Below the pieces are notes generated by a model. The model was not told the DNA's origin, made no database searches, and was given only the letters and a program-made list of their open reading frames with translations. From contig CAZLTC010000005.1 in the NCBI GenBank assembly GCA_964562405.1, positions 3,381 to 67,380 of the forward strand: 64,000 nucleotides of DNA. The letters run 5' to 3'. Origin of the DNA: an uncultured bacterium. Its GTDB lineage: Bacteria > Joyebacterota > Joyebacteria > Joyebacterales > Joyebacteraceae. Numbering within the stretch: the stretch's first letter is position 1; each line of letters starts with the position of its first letter. This document shows positions 31,166 to 64,000 of the stretch, in pieces. The position numbers and the translations under genes were made by a program.

Positions 31166-33838
<2,673 letters not shown>

Positions 33839-33905
33839 GCCCCTTCGCGGCGTGCGAGCTTGACGAACGACCAGTCAGCAGGGCGCCCCTCGACGCCGTG
33901 CGAGC

Positions 33906-33934
33906 TTGACGTATGCTCAAGATGAGGATACAAT
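33906..33934 (+). promoter_or_regulatory. Near-consensus sigma70 promoter (TTGACG-17-TACAAT) for the small-peptide/NapH-like operon; the -35-containing 15-mer CGTGCGAGCTTGACG is duplicated 46 bp upstream (33851-33865)
   Basis: Read directly from the sequence: -35 at 33906-33911, 17-nt spacer, -10 at 33929-33934. The first copy of the 15-mer has no matching -10. Confidence 0.55.
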
Positions 33935-34004
33935 AGGCTCTGTGGGGCCGTTCCCCCGAAGGGTCTCCTGCCTCCGCGTGTTGGCCGCTGGACAGGAGTT
34001 GCTC

Positions 34005-34139
34005 GTGAGGAAGATCCTTTTTATTCTCCTTCTCATAGCGTTGTCCGCTTCGGTCGCCTACGGGCTCTATGTCGGGGGCTTCTTCGAGACGCTCACGAAC
34101 GGCGCCATGATCTGCATGACGTGCATCGGGGTGGCGTGA
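34005..34139 (+). CDS. Small (44 aa) single-TM peptide ending in an MxCxxC motif (MICMTCIGVA)
   Basis: GTG start 6 nt after AGGAG, inside listed ORF 33906..34139. VRKILFILLLIALSASVAYGLYVGGFFETLTNGAMICMTCIGVA. Immediately upstream (18 nt) of the polyferredoxin gene. Confidence 0.45.
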   Translation: MRKILFILLLIALSASVAYGLYVGGFFETLTNGAMICMTCIGVA

Positions 34140-34157
34140 CGGGAGGCGGTACCTCTC

Positions 34158-35078
34158 TTGAAACGGCGAATCGTCCAGCTCATCGCCCTCATCGCCAGCA
34201 ATTCTTACTTCACGGCCATACCGACGGCCAGCTTCTACCAGGGCAGCCTTAAGGGTGCGTGCGTTCCCGTGCTCAACTGCTACGCGTGTCCCCTGGCATG
34301 GGGCTCCTGCCCGATAGGGACCCTGCAGCACTTCATCATCGTCCGCGCGCTGCCCTTCTACCTCATCGGAGTGCTGGGACTCGTGGGGCTCGTTGTCGGA
34401 CGCTGGCCGTGTGGGTGGCTGTGTCCGTTCGGGTGGCTGCAGGAGATACTGAACAAGATCCCTTCCCCGAAGTTCTCCGCGCCCGACTGGCTCAGGCACA
34501 CCAAGTACGTCTTCCTGTTCGCCGTTGTGGGGCTGGTGGCATGGATAACGTACGAGCCGTGGTTCTGCAAGATGTGCCCCGCAGGCACACTCGAGGCCGG
34601 CCTGCCGTGGCTGTGGTGGCATGCCAGAGGCTCCGCGTTCGCCGACGGCATGAACTTCACCACGGGCACGTTCAGCGTGAAGCTGCTGCTCCTGGGCGTC
34701 TTCGTGGCGTTCGCGATCATGATGCGCCGGCCGTTCTGCCGGTTCGTGTGCCCTCTTGGAGCGTTCCTCGGGATGATGAACAAGGTAAGCCTGCTGCAGC
34801 TCGACTACGACCTCGACAGCTGTGCCATCGCCTATGCGAAGGGCTCCGACTTCGAGAACTGCCGGAGCTGCAAGCACTGCTCGAGCCGTTGTCCCATGAA
34901 CCTCAAGGTGCCTGAGCAGCGGGGCAGCGTCGACTGCATAAGATGTATGAACTGCACCAGCTACGGCTCGGTTCTCTGGAGGTTCAGACTTGGATCGGCC
35001 GGCGACGGAGCCGGCGAAAGAGGCGCCGCTGACGCTCGAGCAGCAGACGCGGTGCCGGAGCCCCGGGCGCCCGCCTGA
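34158..35078 (+). CDS. Membrane-bound polyferredoxin, NapH/MauN/CcoG-like (4 TM with CxxxCP motifs plus two cytoplasmic [4Fe-4S] motifs)
   Basis: TTG start after GGGAGG. TM-embedded CYACPLAWGSCPIG, WPCGWLCPFGW, WFCKMCPAGT, FCRFVCPLGAF. C-terminal CRSCKHCSSRCP and CIRCMNCTSYG. Confidence 0.75.
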   Translation: MKRRIVQLIALIASNSYFTAIPTASFYQGSLKGACVPVLNCYACPLAWGSCPIGTLQHFIIVRALPFYLIGVLGLVGLVVGRWPCGWLCPFGWLQEILNKIPSPKFSAPDWLRHTKYVFLFAVVGLVAWITYEPWFCKMCPAGTLEAGLPWLWWHARGSAFADGMNFTTGTFSVKLLLLGVFVAFAIMMRRPFCRFVCPLGAFLGMMNKVSLLQLDYDLDSCAIAYAKGSDFENCRSCKHCSSRCPMNLKVPEQRGSVDCIRCMNCTSYGSVLWRFRLGSAGDGAGERGAADARAADAVPEPRAPA

Positions 35079-35110
35079 GGCTCGCAGCAAGAGCGTAAGG
35101 GGGCCGCATA

Positions 35111-35905
35111 ATGGAACCCACCATCGGTATCAACGATCGGCTGGTGGAGCGCCTCGGCCAGGCGAGGAGGATCTCCGTCCTGACCGGATCCGGCGTATCC
35201 AGCGAGAGCGGCATTCCGACCTTCCGCGGAAGGGACGGGCTCTGGGAGAAGCACCGCGTCGAGGAGCTCGCTACCCGGCAGGCGTTCGAGTCCCACCCGG
35301 AACTCGTCTGGCGATGGTACGACTACCGCCGCCAGTTGATAGCCGACGCCGAGCCAAACGCGGCGCACGCGGCGATCGCAAGGCTGGAAGGCCGCTTCGA
35401 CTCGTTCGTGCTCATCACCCAGAACGTCGACGGGCTTCACAGGCGCGCCGGCAGCACTTCTCCGGTCGAGCTGCACGGCAATATCTGGCGGGCCCGCTGC
35501 ACGCGCGAGCAGACTGTGAGCGATCTTCTCGAGTGTCCTCTGATGGAACTGCCGCCCGTGTGCGCGAGTTGCGGATCGGTCCTGCGCCCGGATGTCGTCT
35601 GGTTCGGCGAGCCTCTGCCTTCTGACGCCTACGACCGGGCGTATGAGGCAGCAACGAACTGCGACGCGATGCTCGTCGTCGGCGCGTCCGCGATGGTCCG
35701 TCCCGCGGCTTCCCTCCCTCTGGTCGCGAAGACCAACGGCGCCCTCGTCGTCGAGGTCAACCTCGGATTCACGCCCATTTCGGCTCTCATCGACGCAACG
35801 CTGCTGGGCAGGGCCGGAGACGTGCTGCCCAAGCTCGTCGATATGGTCCTGAAGCTCGTCGGAGATGTGGCCCCCCGTGCGCCGAGTCGGGTGGGGGAAC
35901 GGTGA
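35111..35905 (+). CDS. cobB: NAD-dependent protein deacylase, Sir2 family (CobB-like)
   Basis: ISVLTGSGVSSESGIPTFRG...GLW, ITQNVDGLH, Zn-ribbon C...C...CASCGSVLRPDVVWFGE, LVVGASAMVRPAA. Confidence 0.85.
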   Translation: MEPTIGINDRLVERLGQARRISVLTGSGVSSESGIPTFRGRDGLWEKHRVEELATRQAFESHPELVWRWYDYRRQLIADAEPNAAHAAIARLEGRFDSFVLITQNVDGLHRRAGSTSPVELHGNIWRARCTREQTVSDLLECPLMELPPVCASCGSVLRPDVVWFGEPLPSDAYDRAYEAATNCDAMLVVGASAMVRPAASLPLVAKTNGALVVEVNLGFTPISALIDATLLGRAGDVLPKLVDMVLKLVGDVAPRAPSRVGER

Positions 35906-36104
35906 GCATCGGGCAGGAACGGCCCACGACGCCAGAGCTTGACCGGGCTCAGGCGCTCTGCTAGCCTCTAGTATCATCCTCGGCAGAACTTCGGAATCAA
36001 CCGAGGACGACGCGGCTGTCCGGGCGAGCGCCCGGGCGCACTACCGTTAATGATTCGCGCACAGGCCCAAGTGCGACGGCCTTGCGCCTCCCCAGGAAGG
36101 CCCG

Positions 36105-39100
36105 ATGCGAAGATACCTGCCTGCAGTGACGCTGCTCACGATCCTGCTGCTCGCGAGCGGGGCGTTTCCGAAGACCTACAACACGCCGACGATAGACGGC
36201 CGCGTGCAGCAGAGCGCGAGCGATTGGGACGCGGACGAGCTGGGGGTCGATGATCCGACGGACGACGGGCGGTGGTATCCGAGCGACCCGGACCTCGACG
36301 ACCTGTACGTGACGTGGGACGCCGACAACCTGTACGTGGGCGTCACGACCCAGCGGGGGCCCGGGCAGTACGGCAACGGGTACGTGATCTTCATGGACAT
36401 CGACGGCCAGAACGGCGTTACCGGGGCCACGAGCTTTGCCAGCGCCGACTTCTATCCGCGTAACATATCGTTCAGCACGATGGGGGCGGACGTGGTCGGG
36501 GGTGCGTGGGCAGGTCAGGGGCAGTTCCCGATGAGCATGGACTTCAAGCGCTGCACCGACCCGACCAGCACCACGCTCATGACCGGGGTGACGTATTCCG
36601 CCAATCCCGGCGTCCTGAATTTCGAGTTCGGCATGCCCTGGGACACGATCTTCGGGCTGGGCCAGGGAGTCGTGCCCGCCGGAACGAAGATGCGCTTCAT
36701 AGTCGTGGTTGTGGGTGGAGACGGCTCGGGCGCATACGACGCGATGCCGACGTCGAGCACGGGCGCCGAGTCCAACCCCAGCACGCCGTGGGATGCCAAC
36801 ACCGATCTCGACAACTACTATGAGGTGCTCGTAGACGGCAACGGGGACGGCGTCCCGGACCAGGGATTCCCGTCCGGAGGCTCGATATCAGGTACCGTGA
36901 CGCTCGACGACGAGACCGACCTCGAGACCGTGGTCACCGTCTCGGCCTACCTCGAGGGCGAGCTGACGGGCTCTGACACCACGCCCGCGGGCGGCGGAGC
37001 GTATTCGATAGGACGGCTCCCGGACGGCGACTACGAGGTCACCGCCACGGCGGTCTCCTATCTCGACTCGACGCGTTACGCCACCGTCGTGAGCGAGTCC
37101 GACGAGACCGGTATCGACTTCCTCCTCCAGCGCGTGAACGGCGCCATCGAAGGGCAGGTGGCGCTCTCGGGCGGCCCCGCCACGGACGTGACGGTGACCG
37201 CGTATGACGTAGTCACCGGCGCGACGGCGGGCAGCGGTCCGGCGACGGTAACGGGAGGAACCGGCGCCTTCAGGATCGGGACCGTCCTTGACGGCACGTA
37301 CCGTGTCGAGGCTACGGCCAAGGGCTACGTTGAGCAGGCCGCCCAGGCGGTCGTCGCGCTGGAAGGAACGGCCGATGTAGGTCTCCTCACGCTCCCGGCC
37401 GTGGTGGCCACGAAGTACACGTTCGTCGATTCATCGGGGGCCGAGATCTACAGCGCCGGCACCACCGTCAGCATTCCGGACAGCTCGATCTACTACTTTG
37501 CACACGCGTGGCTCGAGCCGCGAGACGACGACGACCGCGTGGCATACTGGGACACGGCGGTGCAGGAGAGCGTCCTTCTGTCGGCGACCAAGCTTGATCC
37601 GTCCTATCCGCCGAGCGGGACGATCGTCTTCGCCGGTGCGGACAGCATGGAGATGCCGGACTCGACCATCACCGCGGCCATGTTCGACGACGGCAGGGCC
37701 CCGCTGCTGGTGGCCGGGGACGAGATCGAGGTGTTGCGCGTGCTCGCCGCCGGCAACGGTCTGAGCGGCGTGCTCGAGGTCGGCATCGACGCGCCGGCCG
37801 CCACGCGCCTCGCGCTCACGTCGGACATCAGCACCATCGACGTTGGCACCGGGATCGCGCGGATCACCGGTCAACTCATCGATGCCGCTGGCAACGACAC
37901 GAAGATATCTGGCGTCCAGGCAAGCATGACAGCCGGTGGAGCGGGTGGCCTGTTCAGCATCAGCTCGCCGGAGACCGACGCCAACGGCAGGTTCGAACTG
38001 GACTTCTACGGGACGGTCGCGGGCACGACCTACGTGTCGGCGGTGATCGATCCGTCGTCCGAGTACGCGAACCTCGACGTGGACGAGATCGCCATCGTGC
38101 TCGAGCCCGGCGACGCGTCGCTCGTCACGCTCACGGCGACGCCTGCCGCACTCAGAGCCGGGGAGACCGGCGAGATCACGGCCGCCGTCGTCGACGCCTG
38201 GGGCAACTCCGTGGGAATGTCCGGGCTGTCGATTGCGCTCACGTCATCGCCGGTCGGCCTTCTCACGTCGCTTGATACACCTCTCGTAACGGAGGCCGAC
38301 GGTATGGCCAGCGGCTCCGTCACGGCCGGTACCGCCTACGGCATCGTAGAGGTGTCCGGAGCCGCGGCGGGCGTCTCGGTTGAGACCATCTACATTCCCA
38401 TAGACGCTACGATCGTCGCCGTTGACGAGACCGCGCCGGAGTCCGACAACGCGCACAACAGCAACGCCGGGGTCGACCTTACGATCATGCGGGCCACTTC
38501 CGACGCGGAGACGCTCGAGGTCACGCTGGACTTCAGCTCCGACTGGGACGGGGTTCATCTCATGCTCGCGCTCGAGTCCCACGACGACGCGGCGGGTGGC
38601 GCGTCCGACCCGTTCGGCTTCCCGGTCAACTTCGGACACACGCTCCTTCCGGACTACGTCTTCACCTACAAGTATGCCGCGAACGACTACGCCGACCTGA
38701 GACGCTTCTTCGGCGGCCAGTGGGAGCACTACGACTTCGTCAACAAGGAATGGCGAGTCGGCTACATTCCCGAGGTCAACGCTCTGGCTTACGGCTACAT
38801 CGTCCGCGAGCAGGACAAGGTCATATTCCGGATACCTTTCTCCGTGCTCGAAACCGATTTCGGAGACACCGTTCGCGTCGAGGCCTACCTTACGCAGGAG
38901 GCCGACGGCGAGAAGAGGACCGCTCTCGACTCGGTGCCGCAGGACGCCACTCACGACATGGTCCCGGACACGGGAGAGTGGTGGGAGACCGCGACGACGC
39001 CGGTGACGCTCACGAACTACGCCGTTCACGAGATTCTCGTGCCGGGAGATCCTCCGGTGCTCTCCGACGGCACGGCCAGTCCATCGACGGCGCAGCCTGG

Positions 39101-41441
39101 CGATCTCGTGACCTACAGCGTAGGCGTGAGCGATGGCGGCGCCGGCATAGGCGACGTCTTCATCGACCTGTCGGGCGTAGGCGGTCCGTCTTTCCTCCGA
39201 ATGATGGATGACGGGCGCTCTCCCGACGGAGCTGCCGCTGACGGAGTCTATTCTGTGAGTGACACGTTGCGTGCCGGGGCGGCGAACGGTGAGCACACGG
39301 TGTTCGTTACGGCCAGGGATGCTTCGAACGTTTCCGAGGCGAAGCTCGGCATAACCGTCAACGTGGACAACCCCGCGGTCGCGCTCCGCGAGTTCGACGA
39401 TCCGGTCGGGGACGACCACGGACCGGACCAGACGTCTGCGAACGGCACCCCCATCCAGGGTCTGTACTACTACTACCCGACCAACTTCGTGTTCCTACCG
39501 GGATCGTTCGATCTCACGGACGTGGAGATCTTCGCGGACGGCGACTGGCTAGTCTTCCGCGTTCACCTCGACGATCTGGCCAACCACCAGGACGCGGGCT
39601 CGGCGGATTGGGGTGCGCCTCAGCCGAGTGAGCAGACGTGCACCAATCCCTATCGGACGGACCTCAACCTTCAGAAGATAGACATCTACATCGACGCCAG
39701 GGAAGGCGAAGGGGCGACGAGTGGGTTCCCCAACAGGTACGTCGACATCGCCACGGTCGACGCGTGGGACTACGCCATAGCCGTGGAGGGTTGGGGAAAG
39801 TGGTTCGTGAAGTCGAACGGGGAGAACTCGATAGCCAGCTGGTCGCTCTACAAGAACGACAGCGACATAAGTATGTGCGACGACTATGAGAACAATTACG
39901 TCGACGTCCGCGTCGACAGATCGCTCTTCGGACAGGACCTCGACGAGGACAACCTGAGCCTCCTCGAGTGGGACATCATCGTCACGATGGCCTCGCACGA
40001 CGGTGACTCGAGCGACCAGAACCTCGGCGGGACACGCTGGGTGAACGCCAACACGAGCGAGTGGCAGATAGGCGGCGGTCGCGACGGAGAAGCGAGCCGC
40101 GAGCGCGATGCCAACATCATGGACGTCGCGATGTCGCCCGGCGCGAGTCACGAGCCAGGCCGGACTCAGCAGGAGATGCTCGACTACACCACTCCCGAGG
40201 CGGAGCAGCGCTTCGCGGATGACAAGGTCGCCTGCGTGTTGGAGGCCAGTTTCGCGCTCGACACGTCTCCGCCGGTCATAACGCCGCTCAAGTCAGACCC
40301 CGACGTGCGCCACATCCCGTGGGTCGCGCTGGATGAGGCGCCTGCCGTCTTCTGGACGACGATAACCGATGTGTCGGACGTCGACGAGGCAATGTTCTAT
40401 TGGTATCCGGTTGGACTTCCAGCGTTGGTCGACTCTGTGAAGATGGTGAATCTGTATAGCGACATCTGGGCCGGTGACGTCGCCAGGGCGGACATCGTTG
40501 CCCATACTGACGTCGTCGAACAGGTAAAGACGGGCGCCAGCCGCGTCATACTCGGCTCGATCCGGGCGCGTGACGCCTCGTCGAACCACAACCAGATCAA
40601 GACCGTGTTCAAAGAGATCGCTATCCCCGAACCGTGGGCCTCCTCGCAGCGCATCGCCGACGTCGACACCTCATTCGTGGCGGGCGAGGACTACGCGGCG
40701 ATCTTCCAGGACGGCACGCTCCTCGTTCTGGAGCCCGGTCAGGTGGTGCCGGAGGGCGGGCTCGACATCTTGCTCACGCCGGTCGCTCAGAGCCTCGTCG
40801 ACCTCGACAACATTCGCAAGGACATGGCGTTCACCGGCGTTGCGAGGGACGTCCGCCTGGAGACGGGCGACAGGAGCACGGTAGCTCTCAGCGTTCCCGC
40901 GTGGCTCATCATGCACTACCCACAGTACGATGTGGGGGGCCTGAACGAGAACGCATTCGGCGTCTTCGAGTGGAACGAAGAGACGGAGCGCTGGATAGCC
41001 CTCGGAGGAGCGGCGAACAAGAAGGGCAACTCGGTCACATGTGTGGGCCTCGAGCGGCTCGGTCTCTTCGGTCTGTTCGAGTGGGACGCTCTTGACACGG
41101 GCGGCAGCCGCGGACTCTCGGGAGTGCTCGCCGAGCCGAATCCGTTCTCGCCCAACGGCGACGGGCTCTACGACGACATGGTGGTCACGTTCTACATCGG
41201 GAGAGAGGCCGACTACGTCAACATCGAGTTCTACGATCTGGCCGGAGTGCTCGCCAGACGTCTCGTCTTCCAGGATCCGGCCAACTACACGGGGCGCACC
41301 CCGATGCAGGTGGTGTGGGACGGCACGGACATGAACGGCAACGTGGTTCCCTACGGGCTCTACGTGTTGCGCGTAGAGGCCAAGTTCAAGACCGAGCCCA
41401 TCTACGAGCGCGTGAACATACCCGTAGCAGTCATCAAGTAG
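36105..41441 (+). CDS. Giant (1778 aa) secreted multidomain protein. It has an N-terminal CBM9/DOMON-like carbohydrate-binding domain, carboxypeptidase-regulatory-like and Big/Ig-like beta-sandwich repeats, a glucodextranase-C-like domain and a C-terminal T9SS-type/FlgD-Ig-like sorting domain
   Basis: Signal peptide MRRYLPAVTLLTILLLASGAFP. TIDGRVQQSASDWDADELGVDDPTDDGRWY...LYVTWDADNLYVGV (CBM9-like). Repeated GSISGTVTLDD...YEVTATA (CarbopepD_reg-like). LYYYYPTNFVFLPGSFDLTDVEIFADGDWLVFRVHLDDL...IDIYID (shared with the 50256..51032 protein). C-terminus NPFSPNGDGLYDDMVVTFYIGREADYVNIEFYDLAGVLARRLVF...VVWDGTDMNGNVVPYGLYVLRVEA. Confidence 0.8.
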   Translation: MRRYLPAVTLLTILLLASGAFPKTYNTPTIDGRVQQSASDWDADELGVDDPTDDGRWYPSDPDLDDLYVTWDADNLYVGVTTQRGPGQYGNGYVIFMDIDGQNGVTGATSFASADFYPRNISFSTMGADVVGGAWAGQGQFPMSMDFKRCTDPTSTTLMTGVTYSANPGVLNFEFGMPWDTIFGLGQGVVPAGTKMRFIVVVVGGDGSGAYDAMPTSSTGAESNPSTPWDANTDLDNYYEVLVDGNGDGVPDQGFPSGGSISGTVTLDDETDLETVVTVSAYLEGELTGSDTTPAGGGAYSIGRLPDGDYEVTATAVSYLDSTRYATVVSESDETGIDFLLQRVNGAIEGQVALSGGPATDVTVTAYDVVTGATAGSGPATVTGGTGAFRIGTVLDGTYRVEATAKGYVEQAAQAVVALEGTADVGLLTLPAVVATKYTFVDSSGAEIYSAGTTVSIPDSSIYYFAHAWLEPRDDDDRVAYWDTAVQESVLLSATKLDPSYPPSGTIVFAGADSMEMPDSTITAAMFDDGRAPLLVAGDEIEVLRVLAAGNGLSGVLEVGIDAPAATRLALTSDISTIDVGTGIARITGQLIDAAGNDTKISGVQASMTAGGAGGLFSISSPETDANGRFELDFYGTVAGTTYVSAVIDPSSEYANLDVDEIAIVLEPGDASLVTLTATPAALRAGETGEITAAVVDAWGNSVGMSGLSIALTSSPVGLLTSLDTPLVTEADGMASGSVTAGTAYGIVEVSGAAAGVSVETIYIPIDATIVAVDETAPESDNAHNSNAGVDLTIMRATSDAETLEVTLDFSSDWDGVHLMLALESHDDAAGGASDPFGFPVNFGHTLLPDYVFTYKYAANDYADLRRFFGGQWEHYDFVNKEWRVGYIPEVNALAYGYIVREQDKVIFRIPFSVLETDFGDTVRVEAYLTQEADGEKRTALDSVPQDATHDMVPDTGEWWETATTPVTLTNYAVHEILVPGDPPVLSDGTASPSTAQPGDLVTYSVGVSDGGAGIGDVFIDLSGVGGPSFLRMMDDGRSPDGAAADGVYSVSDTLRAGAANGEHTVFVTARDASNVSEAKLGITVNVDNPAVALREFDDPVGDDHGPDQTSANGTPIQGLYYYYPTNFVFLPGSFDLTDVEIFADGDWLVFRVHLDDLANHQDAGSADWGAPQPSEQTCTNPYRTDLNLQKIDIYIDAREGEGATSGFPNRYVDIATVDAWDYAIAVEGWGKWFVKSNGENSIASWSLYKNDSDISMCDDYENNYVDVRVDRSLFGQDLDEDNLSLLEWDIIVTMASHDGDSSDQNLGGTRWVNANTSEWQIGGGRDGEASRERDANIMDVAMSPGASHEPGRTQQEMLDYTTPEAEQRFADDKVACVLEASFALDTSPPVITPLKSDPDVRHIPWVALDEAPAVFWTTITDVSDVDEAMFYWYPVGLPALVDSVKMVNLYSDIWAGDVARADIVAHTDVVEQVKTGASRVILGSIRARDASSNHNQIKTVFKEIAIPEPWASSQRIADVDTSFVAGEDYAAIFQDGTLLVLEPGQVVPEGGLDILLTPVAQSLVDLDNIRKDMAFTGVARDVRLETGDRSTVALSVPAWLIMHYPQYDVGGLNENAFGVFEWNEETERWIALGGAANKKGNSVTCVGLERLGLFGLFEWDALDTGGSRGLSGVLAEPNPFSPNGDGLYDDMVVTFYIGREADYVNIEFYDLAGVLARRLVFQDPANYTGRTPMQVVWDGTDMNGNVVPYGLYVLRVEAKFKTEPIYERVNIPVAVIK

Positions 41442-62893: not shown

Positions 62894-64000
62894 ATGGGCG
62901 AGAAGCAGCTCGCGTCCGATGCCCTCAGGGAAGAGGGCAGGACCTACGCTCCACACGAGGCGGTGATCGAAGCGTCGCGCTGCCTCATGTGCGAGGAGCC
63001 TCCGTGCAACGCCGGCTGCCCGGCGGGCGTGGACGTGCGAAGATTCGTGAGGAAGATCAGATTCGGCAACTTCCGGGGAGCGGCGAGGCTCATTCGCGAG
63101 GCGAACATCTTAGTCGGGATCTGCGGCCGCGTCTGCCCGCAGGAGATGCTCTGTATGGAGCACTGCACGAGGGCCGCGCTCGACACCCCGATCGACATCG
63201 CCGGGCTTCAGCGTTTCGCCGGAGACTGCGAGCTTGCGCAGGTTGCGCCCGTGCCCGACATCGAGGAGCGGAGCGGCAGGGTGGCCGTCGTCGGGGCCGG
63301 TCCCGGGGGATTGGCCGCAGCGGCAGAGCTAAGGCGCGCCGGCGTCACGGTCGGCGTCTTCGACAGCGCCCGTGTGGCGGGCGGAGTTCTTACGAGAGGC
63401 ATACCGCCGTTCAGGCTCGACCCATCCTTCGCGGAAGGGGAACTGGCCTACACTGCTCGGCTTGGCGTCGAGCTGCACCTTGGCGAGAACGTGGACGACC
63501 CGGTCGGACTCCTGGACAAGGGCTTCGACGCGGTGTTCGTGTCCACGGGGCTCTGGCGGCCCTACACGATCGGGCTCGAGGGCGAGGACCTCGACGGCGT
63601 TCACGTGGCCGGCGAGTTCCTGTCTGCCGTCGCCGCAGGCGAGCGGCCGCGTGTGGGAGCCCGCGTGGTCGTGATTGGAGGCGGGAACGTGGCCATGGAT
63701 GCCGCCACGACCGCGCTCCGACTCGGTGCCGCGAGGGTCCATCTCTGCTGTCTCGAGTCGCGTGACGAGATGCCCGCCTTCCGCTCCGAGGTCGAGGTCG
63801 CGCAGAGCGAGGGCGTCGAGTTCCACACGCGCACGCGGCCGGTTCGTATCGTGGGCCGAGACGGTACCGTATCCGGCTACGAGGGTGTCGGGATCCGATG
63901 GAAGGAACCGGGCCTGCTCGTCCCGTCCAACGCCGAGGACATCCCCGGGACCGAGTTCAGTCTCGCGGCCGATGCCGTTATCGAGGCGATAGGCCAGGGA
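62894..64000 (+). CDS. GltD-family NAD(P)H-dependent FAD/[4Fe-4S] oxidoreductase (glutamate synthase small-subunit / SudA / PreT-like), N-terminal 369 aa; continues beyond the window
   Basis: Not in the ORF track because there is no stop within the window. ATG at 62894 after GAAAGG. MGEKQLASDALREEGRTYAPHEAVIEASRCLMCEEPPCNAGCPAGVDV (N-terminal Fe-S), RVAVVGAGPGGLAAAAEL (FAD Rossmann), RVVVIGGGNVAMDAA (NAD(P)H Rossmann). Confidence 0.85.
   Translation, partial: MGEKQLASDALREEGRTYAPHEAVIEASRCLMCEEPPCNAGCPAGVDVRRFVRKIRFGNFRGAARLIREANILVGICGRVCPQEMLCMEHCTRAALDTPIDIAGLQRFAGDCELAQVAPVPDIEERSGRVAVVGAGPGGLAAAAELRRAGVTVGVFDSARVAGGVLTRGIPPFRLDPSFAEGELAYTARLGVELHLGENVDDPVGLLDKGFDAVFVSTGLWRPYTIGLEGEDLDGVHVAGEFLSAVAAGERPRVGARVVVIGGGNVAMDAATTALRLGAARVHLCCLESRDEMPAFRSEVEVAQSEGVEFHTRTRPVRIVGRDGTVSGYEGVGIRWKEPGLLVPSNAEDIPGTEFSLAADAVIEAIGQG

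Follow-up and report, generated by a model that had tools for sequence, protein, structure and literature searches.

A small open reading frame (ORF) for a 44-residue membrane peptide and, after a gap of 18 nt, the gene of a NapH-like membrane polyferredoxin lie in a 64,000-nucleotide stretch of DNA from an uncultured bacterium (GenBank assembly GCA_964562405.1, contig CAZLTC010000005.1; the whole stretch is called the window below). This pairing, pointed out in a preliminary description made from the sequence alone, was confirmed. The module is a divergent, cysteine-type member of a widespread gene pair that is catalogued but uncharacterised. Its polyferredoxin is homologous to Mad6 and its peptide to the family CD1871A (NF040920), the pair is conserved, and in relatives the first cysteine (Cys) of the peptide alternates with what appears to be selenocysteine (Sec). 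Coordinates are collected in Table 1.

Table 1. Features of the module and its direct flanks, in window positions (RBS, ribosome-binding site).
Feature	Position	Strand	Basis or remark
Small ORF, 44-residue CD1871A-type micropeptide	GTG 34005..34139 TGA	+	MRKILFILLLIALSASVAYGLYVGGFFETLTNGAMICMTCIGVA
Peptide cysteine codons	C37 = 34113-34115, C40 = 34122-34124	+	both TGC; tail ...NGAMICMTCIGVA
RBS AGGAG	33994..33998	+	6 nt ahead of GTG start
Mad6-type NapH-like membrane polyferredoxin, 306 residues	TTG 34158..35078	+	Pfam and homology
Sigma-70-type promoter, TTGACG-17-TACAAT	33906..33934	+	consensus scan
Upstream copy of 27-nt direct repeat	33839..33865	+	TTGACG inside, no -10 hexamer at correct spacing
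Downstream copy of 27-nt repeat	33885..33911	+	-35 hexamer at its end
Pyruvate phosphate dikinase gene (ppdK), upstream flank	31166-33838		
Sir2-family deacylase gene	35111..35905	+	PF02146, 1.1e-51; starts 32 nt after polyferredoxin

A profile search with the polyferredoxin gave 80 genome loci from Eisenbacteria, Zixibacteria, Ignavibacteria, Cloacimonadota, WOR-3, Stahlbacteria, Hydrothermota, Omnitrophota, Planctomycetota, Actinomycetota and Desulfobacterota, 78 of which were informative, i.e. had upstream sequence available. A homologous peptide ORF was found near the polyferredoxin gene, mostly immediately upstream, in 76 of the 78 informative loci, and the pairing extends over more than ten phyla. 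The C-terminus of the peptide carries the conserved motif N-[GA]-x-x-[ILM]-C-x-x-C-[IM]-G-[ILV]-x; only G20, C37, C40 and G42 are invariant. Within the window's phylum, non-synonymous and synonymous differences (pN 0.24 vs. pS 0.55) indicate purifying selection. An exhaustive profile search with the peptide returned 1351 representative clusters, and the top 150 of these are all 37–119 residues long with the motif at the extreme C-terminus. The preliminary description had taken the small ORF for a genuine gene and had staked this on its conservation in relatives, which is what was found. The opposite view of a chance ORF in the leader region, unexpressed or non-functional, could draw on the shortness of the ORF, its GTG start and the lack of a match when its exact sequence was looked up in the protein collection. 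The probability of this explanation is negligible, as synteny, conservation and selection already refute it; the C, C and G residues stay invariant over the whole range of phyla, an RBS is present and an NCBIfam model exists for the family.

In the preliminary description, the sequence M-I-C-M-T-C in the tail was read as an MxCxxC heavy-metal-associated (HMA) motif. The literal likeness to HMA metallochaperones exists, but the peptide has no ferredoxin-like fold and no match to PF00403, and its motif stands at the C-terminus of a membrane peptide. Across the homologues the column of the Met is occupied by M, I, V, L, T or S, and because this Met is not conserved the heavy-metal reading fails. 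Neither metal-responsive regulators, which had been proposed as a check, nor other metal genes were found among the annotated genes of the window. From the original interpretation the membrane redox relay is retained.

The peptide can be placed in a catalogued family. Its score against the hidden Markov model (HMM) of NF040920 is 12.4 bits (E=0.11) and does not reach the curated cut-off of 32, whereas the syntenic homologues L073, L025 and L079 lie above it with 41.2, 40.8 and 34.9 bits. Alignment of the Eisenbacteria peptides to bona fide CD1871A members with hhalign gave 97.8% (E=8.6e-13) over 38 columns reaching the C-terminus. Owing to its score under the cut-off, the window peptide is regarded as a divergent branch of CD1871A. 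It agrees with the family in length (about 45 residues), in the single N-terminal transmembrane (TM) helix and in the C-terminal C-x-x-C-[IM]-G-[ILV]. The gene also adjoins that of a Fer4_5 4Fe-4S-binding membrane protein, which is an observed context and not part of the curated definition. The family is named but has no described function.

Since RefSeq annotates the pair in Peptoclostridium acidaminophilum (Clostridia), it is already present in annotation. On the 808-kb replicon of this organism, a Firmicutes example found by a plasmid tblastn search, the gene of a ‘CD1871A family CXXC motif-containing protein’ overlaps the start of that of a ‘4Fe-4S binding protein’, which is 42% identical to the window polyferredoxin; the gene of a TlpA lipoprotein lies 2 kb upstream. 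A homologue search aimed at Firmicutes CD1871A members yielded just 24 close matches. The literature search for CD1871A returned no paper that mentions the family, and the papers on C. difficile CD1871 were set aside as uninformative, being about an ABC permease in a conjugative transposon. The earlier remark that no characterised system has this pairing stands; the peptide's membership in NF040920 and the Sec forms in relatives had been missed.

Loci that seemed at first to be without the peptide carry an in-frame stop codon at the first Cys of the CxxC, for example ...EVMFNAAML*LSCIGVG* (asterisks, stop codons). This codon is TGA in 23 of 23 distinct loci (L011, L013, L028, L029, L036, L039–L041, L043, L046, L048, L052, L055, L058, L062, L065, L069, L071, L074–L076, L078 and L085) and never TAA or TAG, and the following xxC[IM]G[ILV]G is conserved. 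The TGA loci possess a hairpin with a stem of 6–8 bp in most cases and a G-rich loop (GGGU, GGG or similar), which begins 15–23 nt, usually 17–18 nt, downstream of the TGA. The Gly-Val/Ile/Leu codons form the 5' arm and the 3' arm lies past the stop codon with 4–6 nt of 3' sequence; being built from the last codons, the stop and 3' nucleotides, the hairpin overlaps the end of the seven-codon tail. It fits the accepted picture of the bacterial selenocysteine insertion sequence (SECIS). With a position of 16–37 nt after the UGA as criterion, a SECIS-like hairpin with a G-rich apical loop was present in 21 of 22 Sec-type relatives.

On average the stem has 6.45 bp in Sec-type loci and 3.70 bp at the corresponding position of Cys-type loci (Mann–Whitney p=3e-10). 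Compensatory changes are seen in the stems GGT GTC/GACACC, GGC GTC/GACGCC, GGG GTC/GACCCC, GGA ATC/GATTCC and GGG TTA/TAACCC. When subsets of 10 and of 9 loci were aligned, 96–98% of the cells were paired vs. 28–70% in slid controls; one stem pair shows five pair types, and for the first subset the observed score was attained by 0 of 500 shuffles. Minimum free energy z-scores of the whole region did not separate Sec-type from Cys-type loci, whereas the local hairpin analysis did. Rfam gave no match or only chance microRNA matches for seven Sec-type loci, and a tRNA scan of the Sec-type loci, covering 3–13 kb per locus, was empty.

Taken at the level of codons and hairpins, the TGA would specify Sec in place of the first Cys of the peptide in these relatives, and such forms appear to be unreported. 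From an inventory of May 2026, which covers 119 families of prokaryotic selenoproteins, NF040920 is missing, and so is any small membrane UxxC peptide (PMC13188914). When the Sec peptides were compared with U replaced by C, no selenoprotein model of NCBIfam matched and NF040920 was the only recurrent match. TsoA (LULAxC) was considered as a member of the same selenoprotein family and rejected, as its spacing differs and a match to NF045695 is lacking.

The magnetosome island of Solidesulfovibrio magneticus RS-1 harbours one Sec-type form. The unannotated ORF L085:5317-5457 (AP010904.1) has 46 codons, a GGAGG RBS and TGA at codon 40, with MRIFVTSLVAIALTGSLVFVGIGLWKGEFRETWYNGATL-U-GSCIGLG as its product, and is located between a MamE-like trypsin gene and the gene of a 134-residue protein upstream of mad6. 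The protein collection searched contains only a 39-residue truncation of this peptide, the X form being absent. In L039:2191-2440 the region of the Sec-type peptide is present twice owing to a run of N; this is an assembly artefact and not a second gene. On a neighbour-joining tree, Cys and Sec must have been exchanged three times or more, once (L011, L013) within the window's own clade. The window peptide itself is Cys-type, with a best hairpin stem of 3 bp, and does not qualify as a selenoprotein. Because Cys and Sec alternate at the first Cys, this position is probably the active residue, either catalytic or a ligand.

The polyferredoxin matches Pfam Fer4_5 (PF12801, E=6.8e-17) in two stretches, and FMN_bind gave no Pfam match. 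It resembles Mad6 most clearly: identity to P0107, the protein that corresponds to Mad6 (DMR_41050) and is encoded in the RS-1 magnetosome island, amounts to 43% at 94% coverage, and all Cys columns scored as invariant are common to both. The likeness extends to the island, which contains the Sec-type peptide homologue described above. In contrast to Mad6, which lies in a magnetosome cluster, the window polyferredoxin has no magnetosome genes around it; its neighbours are ppdK, Sir2, glycosyltransferase and glucan-binding protein genes.

The earlier label of a NapH/CcoG-type protein holds as far as NapH-like goes, but it had missed the Mad6 homology, and the scores are far below the cut-offs: 33.6 bits for NapH/MauN (TIGR02163, cut-off 213), 19.7 for NapH (PRK09477, cut-off 234), 30.8 for NosR (NF046105, cut-off 1000) and 20.2 for CcoG (TIGR02745, cut-off 316.7). 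The architecture of NapH/MauN is present nevertheless, with four TM helices, two CX3CP and two 4Fe-4S motifs. With NapH/MauN, NosR, CcoG and YccM the window protein shares TM helices that precede CX3CP motifs, and a di-cluster ferredoxin-like domain in the cytoplasm. NosR and E. coli YccM can be aligned from residue 85 onward only; the Mad6-like family thus has a TM1 and a Cys-rich first loop of its own, and it adds to this common plan the outer-loop motifs C-x2-C-P-x5-C-P and (C)-x2-C-P. The window protein also has no domain for binding flavin mononucleotide, and neither nap nor nos nor cco genes form its context. The shared architecture and the weak NapH/MauN and NapH matches would be explained by an ordinary quinol dehydrogenase of NapH type, the peptide being unrelated or merely a stabilising small membrane protein. 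We nevertheless assign it a very small probability in view of the distance to the TIGR02163 cut-off, the family-specific TM1 and first loop, the lack of nap genes nearby and a peptide that is nearly always co-inherited and contains Sec in relatives.

In an AlphaFold2 (AF2) model (pLDDT 79, pTM 0.75) the polyferredoxin shows four long helices. The CX3CP motifs C85/C89 and C194/C198 are located in short helices right after TM2 and TM4. As they follow Arg residues, they are predicted at the cytoplasmic interface and not in TM cores, which corrects the earlier placement of these motifs inside the helices while confirming their presence. The C-terminal domain contains two 4Fe-4S-type motifs. From the charge distribution, the N-terminus (KRR), the loop 81–110 and the iron–sulfur (Fe-S) domain would lie inside, the loops 24–62 and 132–170 outside. 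The outer loops contain C35/C41/C44/C51 and C137/C140, with C41, C44, C51 and C140 invariant, C35 present in 90% of the members and C137 in 52%. In the peptide, two to three basic residues stand before the TM helix and acidic residues after it, so the N-terminus is predicted inside and the CxxC tail on the same outer face as the Cys loops of the polyferredoxin.

The neighbourhoods of the pair differ between lineages. TlpA-like thioredoxin genes (AhpC-TSA/Redoxin, with PEGA or TPR) were found at a distance of up to 4 kb in 18 of the 80 loci, and additionally in L081, L082 and L087, in at least five gene arrangements by our own reading. They are often accompanied by DUF6029 or multihaem cytochrome c genes, and ORFs for multihaem cytochromes c are adjacent to the pair in several loci. 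Directly ahead of the genes of the Sec-type peptide and polyferredoxin, L058:1151-3821 and L062:1167-3827 code for two TlpA-like/TPR proteins together with a multihaem cytochrome c. In 11 other loci, the gene of a GltD-like NAD(P)H/Fe-S flavoprotein lies no more than 4 kb from the module, some of these proteins having N-terminal TM segments. The window also contains a GltD-like Fe-S flavoprotein gene (Fer4_20 and Pyr_redox_2; 62894-64000, + strand, cut by the window end), whose product may act as an electron donor. The pair is found among mam genes in Desulfobacterota, Omnitrophota and Planctomycetota; in the magnetosome clusters of Desulfobacterota the peptide gene lies 0.5–1.5 kb from mad6 and not directly adjacent. 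Four magnetosome clusters from Planctomycetota and Omnitrophota (L035, L057, L064 and L067) contain a conserved small Cys-rich ORF with zinc-ribbon-like motifs (...CPRCGSKG..CPVC...CPACG...CPRC...) about 150–220 nt before the peptide ORF, preceding a Cys-type peptide and a mad6 homologue.

The near-consensus promoter named in the preliminary description is present upstream of the module. TTGACG-17-TACAAT shows 10 of 12 consensus matches and is the sole match in 3.2 kb, with 0.3 expected from shuffles. The form TTGAC(G/T)-17/18-TA(G/C)AAT is kept in 14 of 14 Eisenbacteria-type loci, 71–118 nt 5' of the peptide ORF. The sequence around it diverges, and this conserved site is very probably the actual promoter. 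The duplication of its -35 region was also confirmed, the two repeat copies being 85% identical over 27 nt with the exact 15-mer CGTGCGAGCTTGACG at a spacing of 46 nt. However, the upstream copy is missing from all 13 related loci and present in the window only; either a local duplication gave rise to it recently or it is an operator peculiar to this lineage.

The gene order ppdK, peptide, polyferredoxin, Sir2 and large surface protein is kept in Eisenbacteria. Sir2 begins at +8 to +56 nt in those Eisenbacteria-type loci that reach far enough downstream, a synteny confined to the window's phylum, and is probably co-transcribed with the module. In the window, Sir2 is followed at 36105-41441 by the gene of a 1778-residue surface protein with CarboxypepD_reg and Glucodextran_C domains. 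As the Sir2 and surface-protein genes are syntenic in Eisenbacteria-type loci, the operon may run beyond the peptide and polyferredoxin. On a larger scale, polysaccharide-synthesis genes lie upstream of the module and genes of glucan-binding surface proteins downstream. Two long antisense ORFs that overlap the module, 33633-35090 (-) with 485 residues and 34961-35977 (-) with 338 residues, were rejected as spurious high-GC ORFs; their third-position GC is 0.55–0.68 vs. 0.82–0.88 in most neighbouring genes. The tRNA scan of the window was empty, and Rfam gave no match or only chance microRNA matches for the window and leader region.

We regard it as somewhat probable that the two genes encode one membrane redox unit, a two-subunit reductase leading from Fe-S clusters to an outer Cys-rich site. 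Here we infer topology, physical association, direction of electron flow and substrate. The unit is supported by the pairing of the genes, by the invariant residues of a motif that always ends the peptide, by the alternation of Cys and Sec with its hairpins, and by the predicted topology, which brings the peptide tail and the Cys loops to the outer face. Further support comes from the outer-loop positions that follow the peptide type, from the TlpA-like and multihaem cytochrome c neighbours and from a nonsense mutant of mad6 in RS-1, for which a weak magnetic response and few magnetite crystals were reported and read as a redox role (PMC4287615). The cytoplasmic Fe-S domain of the polyferredoxin would take up electrons, which would cross the membrane via the membrane-embedded cysteine motifs to the Cys-rich outer site. 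There, the first Cys of the peptide, or Sec in many relatives, would act as the reactive residue that reduces an extracytoplasmic substrate. Disulfides of TlpA/ResA-like thioredoxins would be the likeliest substrates, with metal ions as the alternative. A role as thiol-disulfide reductase is favoured because TlpA-like neighbours recur, and the unit would then be a ferredoxin-type functional analogue of CcdA/DsbD. The proposed likeness to CcdA/DsbD would consist in the export of reducing power to extracytoplasmic TlpA/ResA-like thioredoxins, to which the TlpA neighbourhoods fit. The differences are that a sequence relationship is lacking and that the input here would be Fe-S clusters instead of thioredoxin.

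Several observations weigh against this two-subunit reductase. No TlpA-like, DUF6029 or c24-cluster gene was found in the 64-kb window, so the inference on the substrate comes from other lineages. In L058 and L062 the thioredoxin-like domains are without CxxC (WATWSGRS, KLSQDRS). Fusions of the peptide to another protein numbered zero among the top 150 of the 1351 clusters. Topology is a prediction, with a low pLDDT of 56–59 in the first outer loop of the polyferredoxin model, and sequence and fold searches of the PDB with the polyferredoxin gave no solved structure resembling the membrane domain. The Cys/Sec swap occurs in metal-binding UxxC motifs as well, e.g. in HMA-type ATPases and NiFeSe hydrogenase (Table 1 in PMC13188914). 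As such sites contain Sec, the substitution cannot separate thiol chemistry from metal binding.

A refined form of the idea in the preliminary description is a metal relay or reductase, in which the C/UxxC of the peptide would bind Fe, Cu or Hg outside and the polyferredoxin would reduce the metal or pass it on, similar to CcoG with Cu(II). The magnetosome context and the CcoG precedent keep this role alive. CcoG, NosR and NapH have the Fer4_5 core in common, Mad6 homologues adjoin MamB-like and FeoB genes in magnetosome clusters, Cys/Sec-type peptides occur in the same clusters, and Sec-containing UxxC metal sites are known (PMC13188914). Nevertheless, we consider the metal role rather unlikely. 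Besides the variable Met, the missing HMA fold and Pfam match and the CcoG score of 20 bits against a cut-off of 317, no metal transporter or regulator was found among the genes annotated around the window module or in most non-magnetotactic loci. Outside magnetosome clusters, thioredoxin-like proteins are the recurrent neighbours.

The outer loops allow for a further explanation, in which the peptide would be a structural or assembly subunit whose two Cys complete a metal or Fe-S centre with the outer-loop CxxCP...CP...CP, without substrate chemistry of its own. Three of the four invariant outer-loop Cys stand in C-P motifs resembling Fe-S ligands, and the outer loop is poorly modelled without a cofactor. 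The positions of the polyferredoxin whose residues follow the peptide type most closely, C137, L46, P134 and E146, are all located in the outer loops; 86% of the Cys-type loci have C137 vs. 12% of the rest, a link which is confounded by phylogeny and is weakened thereby as support for the reductase, too. No route is known for inserting Fe-S clusters at the outer face into a polytopic protein without a signal for twin-arginine translocation, which counts against a purely structural peptide. Moreover, repeated Cys/Sec switching is typical of reactive rather than purely structural residues. We therefore hold this explanation to be improbable.

Extending the two-subunit reductase, we put forward only tentatively that the C/U-xx-C micropeptide may be the catalytic outer-face subunit of an Fe-S-driven transmembrane reductase, which would represent a third route of reductant export beside DsbD and CcdA. 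The TGA forms would then constitute an unrecognised family of membrane selenoproteins with about 45 residues.

For the window itself the significance is modest, as it adds one member of Cys type, whose strong promoter is conserved. The membrane chemistry of the widespread NapH-like polyferredoxins is poorly understood. A micropeptide that is nearly always co-inherited and has Cys or Sec as the first residue of its motif identifies the probable active residue and offers a small, mutable experimental handle. The module connects three subjects, namely how extracytoplasmic thioredoxins of anaerobes are supplied with reductant, which redox role Mad6 plays in the biomineralisation of magnetite, and the bacterial selenoproteome.

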